Shown here piece by piece: positions 6,001 through 8,214 of a stretch of 8,214 nucleotides of DNA. Source of the DNA: Escherichia coli (lineage in GTDB: Bacteria; Pseudomonadota; Gammaproteobacteria; Enterobacterales; Enterobacteriaceae); assembly GCF_003334765.1 (NCBI RefSeq), contig NZ_QOWT01000060.1. The stretch is one strand, 5' to 3'. How positions within the stretch are numbered: the first letter of the stretch is position 1; each line of letters begins with the position of its first letter. Position numbers: made by a program.

Positions 6001-8214
6001 ATTTCGGGCGCGATATCGCGCGTGGTACGCCTGTGGAACTCGGCGTCTGGATCGACGGAGCGATGCCGAGCCGTGCTGAAACGGTAAAAGGTTACGTGCA
6101 GGCCATGCACCAGAGCTGGTTACAGGATGTGGCGAGCCGACAATCGACACCCGCCAGCCAAAGCGGGCTGATGAATATTGAGACGCGCTATCGCTATAAC
6201 CCGGACGTAAAAAGCCTGCCAGCGATTGTTCCGGCGGTGATCCCGCTTCTGCTGATGATGATCCCGTCAATGCTAAGCGCCCTTAGCGTGGTGCGGGAAA
6301 AAGAGCTTGGGTCGATTATCAACCTTTACGTGACCCCCACCACGCGTAGTGAATTTTTGCTTGGTAAACAGTTGCCATACATCGCGCTGGGGATGCTGAA
6401 CTTTTTCCTGCTCTGCGGCCTGTCGGTGTTTGTGTTTGGCGTACCGCATAAAGGCAGTTTCCTGACGCTCACCCTGGCGGCGCTGCTGTATATCATCATT
6501 GCCACCGGAATGGGGCTGCTGATCTCCACCTTTATGAAAAGCCAGATTGCCGCCATTTTCGGAACGGCGATTATCACGTTGATCCCGGCGACACAGTTTT
6601 CCGGGATGATCGATCCGGTAGCTTCGCTGGAAGGGCCTGGACGTTGGATCGGCGAGGTTTACCCGACCAGTCATTTTCTGACTATCGCCCGCGGGACGTT
6701 CTCGAAAGCGCTGGATCTGACTGATTTGTGGCAACTTTTTATCCCGTTGCTGATAGCCATCCCGCTGGTGATGGGCTTAAGTATCCTGCTGCTGAAAAAA
6801 CAGGAGGGATGATGCGCCATTTACGCAATATTTTTAATCTGGGTATCAAAGAGTTGCGCAGTCTGCTCGGTGATAAAGCGATGCTGACGCTGATTGTCTT
6901 CTCGTTTACGGTGTCGGTGTATTCGTCAGCGACCGTTACGCCAGGATCGTTGAACCTCGCGCCGATCGCCATTGCCGATATGGATCAATCGCAGTTATCG
7001 AACCGGATCGTTAACAGCTTCTATCGTCCGTGGTTTTTGCCACCGGAGATGATCACCGCCGATGAGATGGATGCCGGACTGGACGCCGGACGCTATACCT
7101 TCGCGATAAATATTCCGCCTAATTTTCAGCGTGATGTCCTCGCCGGACGCCAGCCGGATATTCAGGTGAACGTCGATGCCACGCGCATGAGCCAGGCATT
7201 TACCGGCAATGGGTATATCCAGAATATTATCAACGGTGAAGTGAACAGCTTTGTCGCGCGCTACCGTGATAACAGCGAACCGTTGGTATCGCTGGAAACC
7301 CGGATGCGCTTTAACCCGAACCTCGATCCCGCGTGGTTTGGCGGGGTGATGGCGATCATCAACAACATTACCATGCTGGCGATTGTATTGACCGGATCGG
7401 CGCTGATCCGCGAGCGTGAACACGGCACGGTGGAACACTTACTGGTGATGCCGATAACGCCGTTTGAGATCATGATGGCGAAGATCTGGTCGATGGGGCT
7501 GGTGGTGCTGGTGGTATCGGGATTATCGCTGGTGCTGATGGTGAAAGGTGTACTGGGCGTACCGATTGAAGGCTCGATCCCGCTGTTTATGCTGGGCGTG
7601 GCGCTCAGTCTGTTTGCCACCACGTCAATCGGCATTTTTATGGGGACGATAGCGCGTTCAATGCCGCAACTGGGGCTGCTGGTGATTCTGGTGCTGCTGC
7701 CGCTGCAAATGCTTTCCGGTGGTTCCACGCCGCGCGAAAGTATGCCGCAGATGGTGCAGGACATTATGCTGACCATGCCGACGACACACTTTGTTAGCCT
7801 CGCGCAGGCCATCCTCTACCGGGGTGCCGGATTCGAAATCGTCTGGCCGCAGTTTCTGACGCTGATGGCAATTGGCGGCGCATTTTTCACCATTGCGCTG
7901 CTGCGATTCAGGAAGACGATTGGGACAATGGCGTAAATACAATTGCCCGATGCGTAAGCTTATAGGGACTACGCATCGGTGCAATTTATTGAATTTTAGT
8001 TGTTTTTAGGCCGGATAAGGCGTTTATGAACTGACCCCCAAAACCTGGACAGTTTCAGTTAACCGGCTTTTTGATACTCAGTCCTGTATTCAGGGCAAGA
8101 TTACGAAAGCCCGCTCCCCGCAAGGACTGACGCCAGATAGTTTCTGTCCATGGCTGCTTTTCGCATCTTACGTCTTAACCCTGCCTTGAATACCTTATCA
8201 TTCGTCAAAATATT

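Follow-up and report, generated by a model that had tools for sequence, protein, structure and literature searches.

The elements that meet downstream of yhhJ in Escherichia coli K-12 have each been described elsewhere. The H-repeat of the K-12 RhsB element, known as H-rpt B or ISEc1, was reportedly characterised by Zhao et al. in 1993, and K-12 is reported to have served as an IS1397-free recipient. A BIME-1 is defined by the arrangement y - L - z1, in which the L linker carries an IHF site (PMC3333891), and it is into the palindromic units of BIMEs that IS1397 specifically inserts, according to Bachellier et al. 1997, Clément et al. 1999 and Wilde et al. 2001/2003 as these studies are cited in PMC1525189 and PMC3333891. 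In a 2006 survey with K-12 among its genomes, IS1397 copies are listed only for CFT073 (PMC1525189), and no transposition of ISEc1/H-rpt has ever been shown in E. coli (PMC3032704).

The stretch of DNA analysed here (the window: 8,214 nucleotides of contig NZ_QOWT01000060.1, assembly GCF_003334765.1) is yhiJ-yhiI-rbbA-yhhJ of E. coli K-12, ending inside the yhhI H-repeat at the distal tip of RhsB. Indeed, K-12 strains match positions 7900-8214 at 100% (megablast against 5426 complete E. coli genomes), and the features annotated under this match are yhhJ, an ABC transporter permease, and yhhI, an ISAs1-like element ISEc1 family transposase. In both BW2952 and MG1655, the gene order is yhiJ, yhiI, rbbA and yhhJ, then on the opposite strand yhhI, yrhC, yhhH, rhsB and nikR; the nikR-yhhJ interval of K-12 is filled by rhsB, yhhH, yrhC (annotated in K-12 as a HEAT-repeat pseudogene) and yhhI. 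From annotation and composition, the RhsB layout is present - a GC-rich rhs core gene, an AT-rich tip with its immunity gene, and an H-repeat downstream, all set between core-genome genes - and of this element the window holds only the ISEc1 end. The GC profile marks the region as composite, at 53-54% in yhhJ, 40-45% in ISEc1, 30-37% in the Rhs tip and 60-67% (~62%) in the Rhs core. What stands between yhhJ and yhhI is very probably a three-layer mobile-element scar rather than a working device: a z1 REP split by IS1397, with ISEc1/RhsB joined to the remaining 64-bp stump.

The BIME-1 at the end of the operon

Aligned with the BIME between gldA and yijF and with the intact alleles of strains JJ2434 and FDAARGOS_1304, the end of the yhiI-rbbA-yhhJ operon is recognisable as a single BIME-1: one y REP and one z1 REP lie in opposed orientation on either side of a long L linker, in a single copy, and the z1 unit is reduced to a half in K-12. 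The order and orientation of y unit, linker and z unit, and the single-copy position at an operon 3' end, are those of other BIME-1 (RIB-RIP) elements. It differs from them in that its y unit lacks the canonical stem and folds in another register, its z1 unit is halved, and its IHF-like site carries one mismatch and is not significant by itself. This site, ATTCAATAAATTG at 7982-7994 on the minus strand, departs at one position from the consensus WATCAANNNNTTR, a pattern that alone does not rise above chance; matches to it number 17 in the window, with 8.6 expected.

A REP-like hairpin at 7947-7979 had been noticed by the sequence-only reading and is clearly present: CCGATGCGTA and TACGCATCGG make a perfect 10-bp stem that encloses a 13-nt loop, and the extended hairpin has a folding energy of -24.7 kcal/mol (z = -6.2), a value that none of 200 shuffled sequences equalled. 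The y unit GCCCGATGCGTAAGCTTATAGGGACTAC can be aligned column by column with two counterparts, the canonical GCCTGATGCGCTACGCTTATCAGGCCTAC from the gldA-yijF BIME and the JJ2434 unit GCCCGATACGCAAGCTTATCGGGCCTAC. In JJ2434 the y unit folds the canonical REP stem, at -15.6 kcal/mol (locus L004, 4140-4190), whereas in K-12 this stem is lost and the longer hairpin is gained, in an alternative register that uses bases outside the unit and in the linker. In strain ET450 (locus L015, 3135-3160) a deletion takes out the y-REP hairpin together with the yhhJ stop region, so that the annotated yhhJ is longer; several frameshifted genes lie nearby, and an assembly error is possible.

The same reading had also recognised a REP half-site with no palindromic partner, and this too was confirmed. 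TTAGGCCGGATAAGGCG, at 8006-8022, is the sole match in the window (0.00 expected), the REP arm extends to 8026, and no partner arm was found anywhere in 24 kb of the K-12 locus. Today, the y-REP hairpin likely still sits at the operon 3' end, where yhhJ and yhhI converge, while the half REP has likely lost the ability to fold. Scans of 7800-8214 for Rfam families, promoters and terminators gave nothing above chance, the sole terminator-like match lying inside yhhJ, and the small ORFs of the yhhJ-yhhI gap are all of 45 aa or fewer and overlap the repeats.

Table 1. Features at the right-hand end of the window.
Feature	Position	Strand	Basis or remark
yhhJ (final gene of the yhiI-rbbA-yhhJ operon; ABC transporter permease)	6812..7936	+	stop codon 7934-7936; BW2952 and MG1655 RefSeq annotation mapped on the window, ORF list
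Extended hairpin	7941..7986	+	16 pairs, one bulge; contains the perfect 10-bp stem 7947-7956 / 7970-7979
Degenerate y-type REP (palindromic unit) GCCCGATGCGTAAGCTTATAGGGACTAC, tail CTAC	7945..7972	+	aligned with other y units
L-type BIME-1 linker	7973..8005	+	aligned with the linker of the gldA-yijF BIME
Left arm and loop of a z1-type REP, TTAGGCCGGATAAGGCGTTTA, right arm missing	8006..8026	+	unique match; intact unit in other strains
IS1397 (IS3 family) relic, terminal 64 bp of the transposase-3' (right) end	8027..8090	-	62/64 identical to complete 1432-bp IS1397
ISEc1 right end (H-repeat B, ISAs1 family)	8091..8214	-	whole element 1291 bp, would reach 9381 in extended window coordinates
yhhI 3' end (ISEc1 transposase), 37 codons and stop at 8101-8103	8101..8214	-	translation, annotation

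The IS1397 end and the ISEc1 end

The identity of the DNA between the half REP and the H-repeat was betrayed by one window match that covered only 8007-8091 (85 bp, E = 1e-28) and fell on an annotated plasmid IS1397. That copy, on an sslE plasmid, is 1432 bp long, is flanked by a CAC duplication and lies inside a REP; aligned with its end, 8027-8090 is identical at 62 of 64 positions, beginning at the terminal TGAACTG. The segment retains the terminal inverted repeat (the TGAACTG start) and the last 10 codons and stop of orfB, whose translation, EYRTEYQKAG, matches the C-terminus of an orfB that scores 331 bits on NF033516, the IS3 family model. When the whole of IS1397 was compared by BLAST with 24 kb of K-12, only nucleotides 1-65 were found and no other pieces; the C at 8091 is assignable to either IS1397 or ISEc1. 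Only nucleotides 1-64 are thus left, with neither two inverted repeats, nor a full orfA/orfB with its programmed frameshift, nor a 3-4 bp duplication, and the alignment identifies 8027-8090 as a relic of IS1397, not a functional member. We found no mention of such a relic in full-text literature on IS1397 with K-12 or remnants, which is weak evidence of its being unreported. The orfB frame of the relic, with its stop at 8059-8061, is in frame with yhhI, 13 codons downstream of the yhhI stop, which appears coincidental, and an 8-bp inverted repeat (8078-8085 / 8123-8130) spans the border between IS1397 and ISEc1.

Complete copies of IS1397 are found at five loci (the sslE plasmid, gldA-yijF, msrQ-zinT, downstream of rrf, and dgcE-alkA), all of them in REP loops and with duplications of 3-4 bp: CAC, TCAC, AGC, GCA and TAAC. 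The corresponding junction of the window, TTAGGCCGGATAAGGCGTTTA followed by TGAACTG (also written with GGCGTTTA or GGCCGGATAAGGCGTTTA before TGAACTG), has the same form as in these five copies, as can be seen at gldA-yijF, where GTAGGCCGGATAAGGCGTTCAC precedes TGAACTG. Because of this shared form, and its agreement with the reported REP-loop specificity, we infer that the join of REP and IS1397 is a genuine insertion junction. The terminal sequence, the insertion point in a REP loop and the z-type unit of a BIME-1 as target (compare gldA-yijF in E2348/69) are all as in other IS1397 insertions in BIMEs; what differs is that only 64 of 1432 bp are left, that neither the second REP arm nor the far IS end nor the target duplication remains, and that the host is K-12. 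Downstream of rrf in strains HS13-1 and JA0072 (loci L018 and L019, 1-1760), a frameshifted IS110-family transposase lies ~200 bp from IS1397 in the same intergenic REP cluster, and two REP-associated IS types may be stacked there at one BIME.

On the other side of the relic, the terminus of ISEc1 was set by comparing four copies, namely that of K-12 RhsB and those beside yddH, dkgB and ybgA. Their similarity begins only at CAGGGCAAGAT, going inward, and the terminus is accordingly at 8091; ISEc1 copies begin to match at window position 8090/8091. It had been proposed from the window that the element ends somewhere within 8028-8100, immediately beside the REP break; the range holds, the adjacency does not, since 64 bp (8027-8090) intervene. 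Extension to the right recovered the full element and its terminal inverted repeats, CAGGGCAAGATTA (8091-8103) and CAGGGAAAGATCA, which are imperfect, agreeing at 11/13 positions; all four copies are 1291 bp long and end in ATCTTTCCCTG. The minus-strand open reading frame was rightly taken for a transposase 3' end of the ISAs1 family: full-length yhhI of the K-12 locus, of which the window has the last 37 codons only, scores 412.4 bits on NF033564 (NCBIfam, ISAs1 family; cut-off 70). The element is identical to H-rpt B/ISEc1 of K-12 RhsB, with its 1291 bp and its 1137-nt ORF (stop included) downstream of the rhsB core and tip, and is itself no different from it; the new detail concerns the DNA to which its outer end is joined.

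That join brings the exact terminal base of ISEc1 to nucleotide 64 of IS1397, with no target duplication. Nor was a flanking direct repeat found at any of the four ISEc1 copies examined, an absence that argues against simple insertion at those four sites, not against membership of ISAs1; likewise, no REP adjoins the three other copies. In 4/4 copies (loci L001, L008, L009 and L010), core-genome DNA lies next to the transposase-3' end, CAGGGCAAGAT; in three, the other end faces Rhs/PAAR/immunity DNA, and the far flank of the ydcC copy is without annotation. In strain CI5 (locus L021, 1376-2850), where a T6SS/PAAR island borders on dkgB, this end of ISEc1 truncates the gene.

Alleles and distribution across E. 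coli

Strains for the comparison of alleles were picked from the coverage classes of the junction search and then inspected directly. JJ2434 and FDAARGOS_1304, which are without RhsB, carry the intact REP unit GTAGGCCGGATAAGGCGTCACGCCGCATCCGGC, as the sequence-only reading had anticipated for strains lacking the element, and among the inspected alleles none without the element shows the truncated REP of K-12. In these two strains, an operon with class II aldolase, HPr, FGGY kinase, PTS and GntR genes fills the interval up to nikR, and K-12 and JJ2434 diverge exactly from the nikR stop codon. The suspicion that a larger variable Rhs region begins where the window stops was therefore well placed: the nikR-yhhJ interval has alternative occupants, either rhsB, yhhH, yrhC and yhhI, or a seven-gene sugar operon (GntR, PTS IIA-IIB-IIC, FGGY kinase, HPr and class II aldolase; JJ2434, loci L004/L011). 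The ExPEC frz operon was considered and rejected as an identity for this alternative island, its gene content being different. The nikR-rhsB boundary was searched for an ISEc1 inverted repeat, a sign of a composite transposon, and none was found.

Other strains show other outcomes at the same place. In O157:H7, homology to K-12 stops at the yhhJ stop codon, and in strain ATCC 35150 (locus L005, 4138-4890) a hicA/hicB toxin-antitoxin pair directly follows that stop, with no BIME and then the sugar operon. MSB1_7C has the sugar operon, no IS and only the complementary (right) REP arm, reading TTTTA and then CGCCGCATCCGGC (or GTTGTTTTA and then CGCCGCATCCGGC). This half REP, gttgtttta joined to cgccgcatccggc (locus L016, 3195-3215, the site of window 8000-8026), is the mirror image of the K-12 half-site; its arm fits an ancestral loop GTTTAC, and its left arm appears, from the sequence at the break, to have been removed by a small deletion between short TTTA repeats.

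Among the 5426 complete E. coli genomes, the junction of REP and IS1397 occurs in 2113, that of IS1397 and ISEc1 in 2112, and that of nikR and rhsB in 2118. A chimeric query in which the BIME runs on into continuing IS1397 detected no complete IS1397 at the yhhJ BIME in the 5426 genomes; the full-length matches that it did return (93% identity, 171 genomes) belong to another locus, gldA-yijF, and were set aside. The reciprocal junction, sought with a chimeric query of the far end of ISEc1 and IS1397 nucleotides 65 onward, was likewise found in 0 of 5426. Since the three junctions have near-equal counts, with no full IS1397 at the site and no reciprocal junction, the RhsB haplotype, relic included, behaves as one old unit. 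The body of IS1397 is present in 1723 genomes, and 19 of 23 sampled matches from RhsB-haplotype genomes, K-12 derivatives among them, were the genome's single match to the IS1397 end. In lineages diverged by ~4%, SJC33 among them, both junctions are present even though ISEc1 is internally deleted.

History of the scar

The anatomy of the locus, the REP-loop junction, the exact end of ISEc1 and the intact REP elsewhere are all directly observed, and so is the absence of intermediates. From these we infer the order in which the layers were laid down, i.e. BIME, then IS1397, then the ISEc1/RhsB join, because an intact REP could not be rebuilt from the present state, and because IS1397 must have been whole when it inserted. 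At the outset, the yhiI-rbbA-yhhJ operon would have ended in a single BIME-1 of y REP, L linker and z1 REP. IS1397, whose transposase targets REP loops, would then have entered the z1 loop with its right end toward yhhJ, parting the two arms. Lastly, ISEc1, which as H-repeat forms the distal tip of RhsB, would have become joined by its right terminal base to IS1397 nucleotide 64, with the loss of IS1397 nucleotides 65-1432, of the right REP arm and of whatever stood between there and nikR.

Could the H-repeat itself have done the damage? The sequence-only reading supposed that the ISAs1 element had inserted into, or recombined at, a REP/BIME cluster and so truncated the REP, and its premise survives, in that a REP was the target and the site is a BIME. 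Indeed, the half-site and the ISEc1 end lie just 64 bp apart, and the REP is intact in strains without the element. However, those 64 bp are an IS1397 end joined to the REP loop as in complete insertions, which makes IS1397 the element that split the REP and leaves ISEc1 joined to its nucleotide 64; moreover, ISEc1 copies have nothing in common outside 8091, and the three others examined do not abut REPs. A direct attack of the H-repeat on the REP is thus very improbable. More improbable still, to the point of being negligible, is that the 64-bp match reflects chance or a conserved functional motif such as a terminator or regulatory site. The match is short and K-12 has no other IS1397, but identity is 62/64, the 85-bp match that includes the relic has an E value of 1e-28, the similarity starts exactly at the terminal TG of the IS where this abuts the REP loop, the orfB stop and last 10 codons are kept, and no Rfam match, promoter or terminator falls within the 64 bp.

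The manner of the last step is harder to settle. We favour a transposase-type event at the ISEc1 end, by analogy with other insertion sequences, because the join falls exactly at the terminal base of ISEc1 and because the same end truncates dkgB in CI5. Such an event may have been an intramolecular adjacent deletion that started from an ISEc1 by then linked to RhsB, a version to which we give a tentative preference a little short of even. The locus resembles IS-mediated adjacent deletions and nested IS scars in its intact IS, its precise end abutting a truncated neighbour and its lack of duplication or reciprocal product, features to which the dkgB case of CI5 is alike; it differs in that ISEc1 has no demonstrated transposition, and the mechanism is proposed by analogy only. 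Against an adjacent deletion, K-12 and JJ2434 part exactly at the nikR stop, and there is no trace of RhsB and the sugar operon side by side. Ranked slightly below it, and a serious contender that the data do not separate from it, is a simple transposition of ISEc1 into the resident IS1397, followed by a homologous exchange that substituted the RhsB element for all the DNA distal to ISEc1, whether through ISEc1-ISEc1 recombination with an Rhs-linked H-repeat or by import of the haplotype through recombination in flanking genes. The join precisely at the ISEc1 terminal base would fit this, the median of four matching places per genome, mostly ISEc1 copies, would supply partners for recombination, and the two boundaries of RhsB are almost completely linked, as expected if the haplotype travelled as a block; yet the reciprocal junction, of the ISEc1 far end with IS1397 nucleotide 65 onward, is absent from all 5426 genomes, and there is no target duplication, though none was found at any of the four copies examined. 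Illegitimate recombination may also have happened to fall at the ISEc1 end. For the order and mechanism of this third layer as a whole, no intermediate survives, neither a complete IS1397 at the site nor an ISEc1 with IS1397 on both sides, and both transposase versions have to contend with the fact that ISEc1 transposition has never been observed (PMC3032704).

The join of the exact ISEc1 terminal base to the interior of another IS, without duplication or reciprocal product and with its like at dkgB in CI5, could be a natural footprint of ISEc1 transposase activity, through one-ended or adjacent-deletion events. We regard this as unlikely; were it true, it would be the H-repeat that fixes where Rhs/T6SS cargo islands end distally, although its transposition has never been seen in the laboratory.

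H-repeats, RhsB and BIME-1 are already established, as is the REP specificity of IS1397, and the detail added here - a 64-bp relic of IS1397 in K-12 - is a scar of an ordinary kind that reveals no new mechanism or system. Its value lies in annotation and in the history of the locus: between yhhJ and yhhI, the reference strain carries a remnant of IS1397 beside a halved BIME-1, and the junctions offer a simple marker of the RhsB haplotype. The nested order of BIME, IS1397 and ISEc1/RhsB would provide a relative chronology for that haplotype, and the relic shows that the ancestor of the RhsB-bearing genomes, ~39% of the E. coli sequenced, once harboured IS1397.
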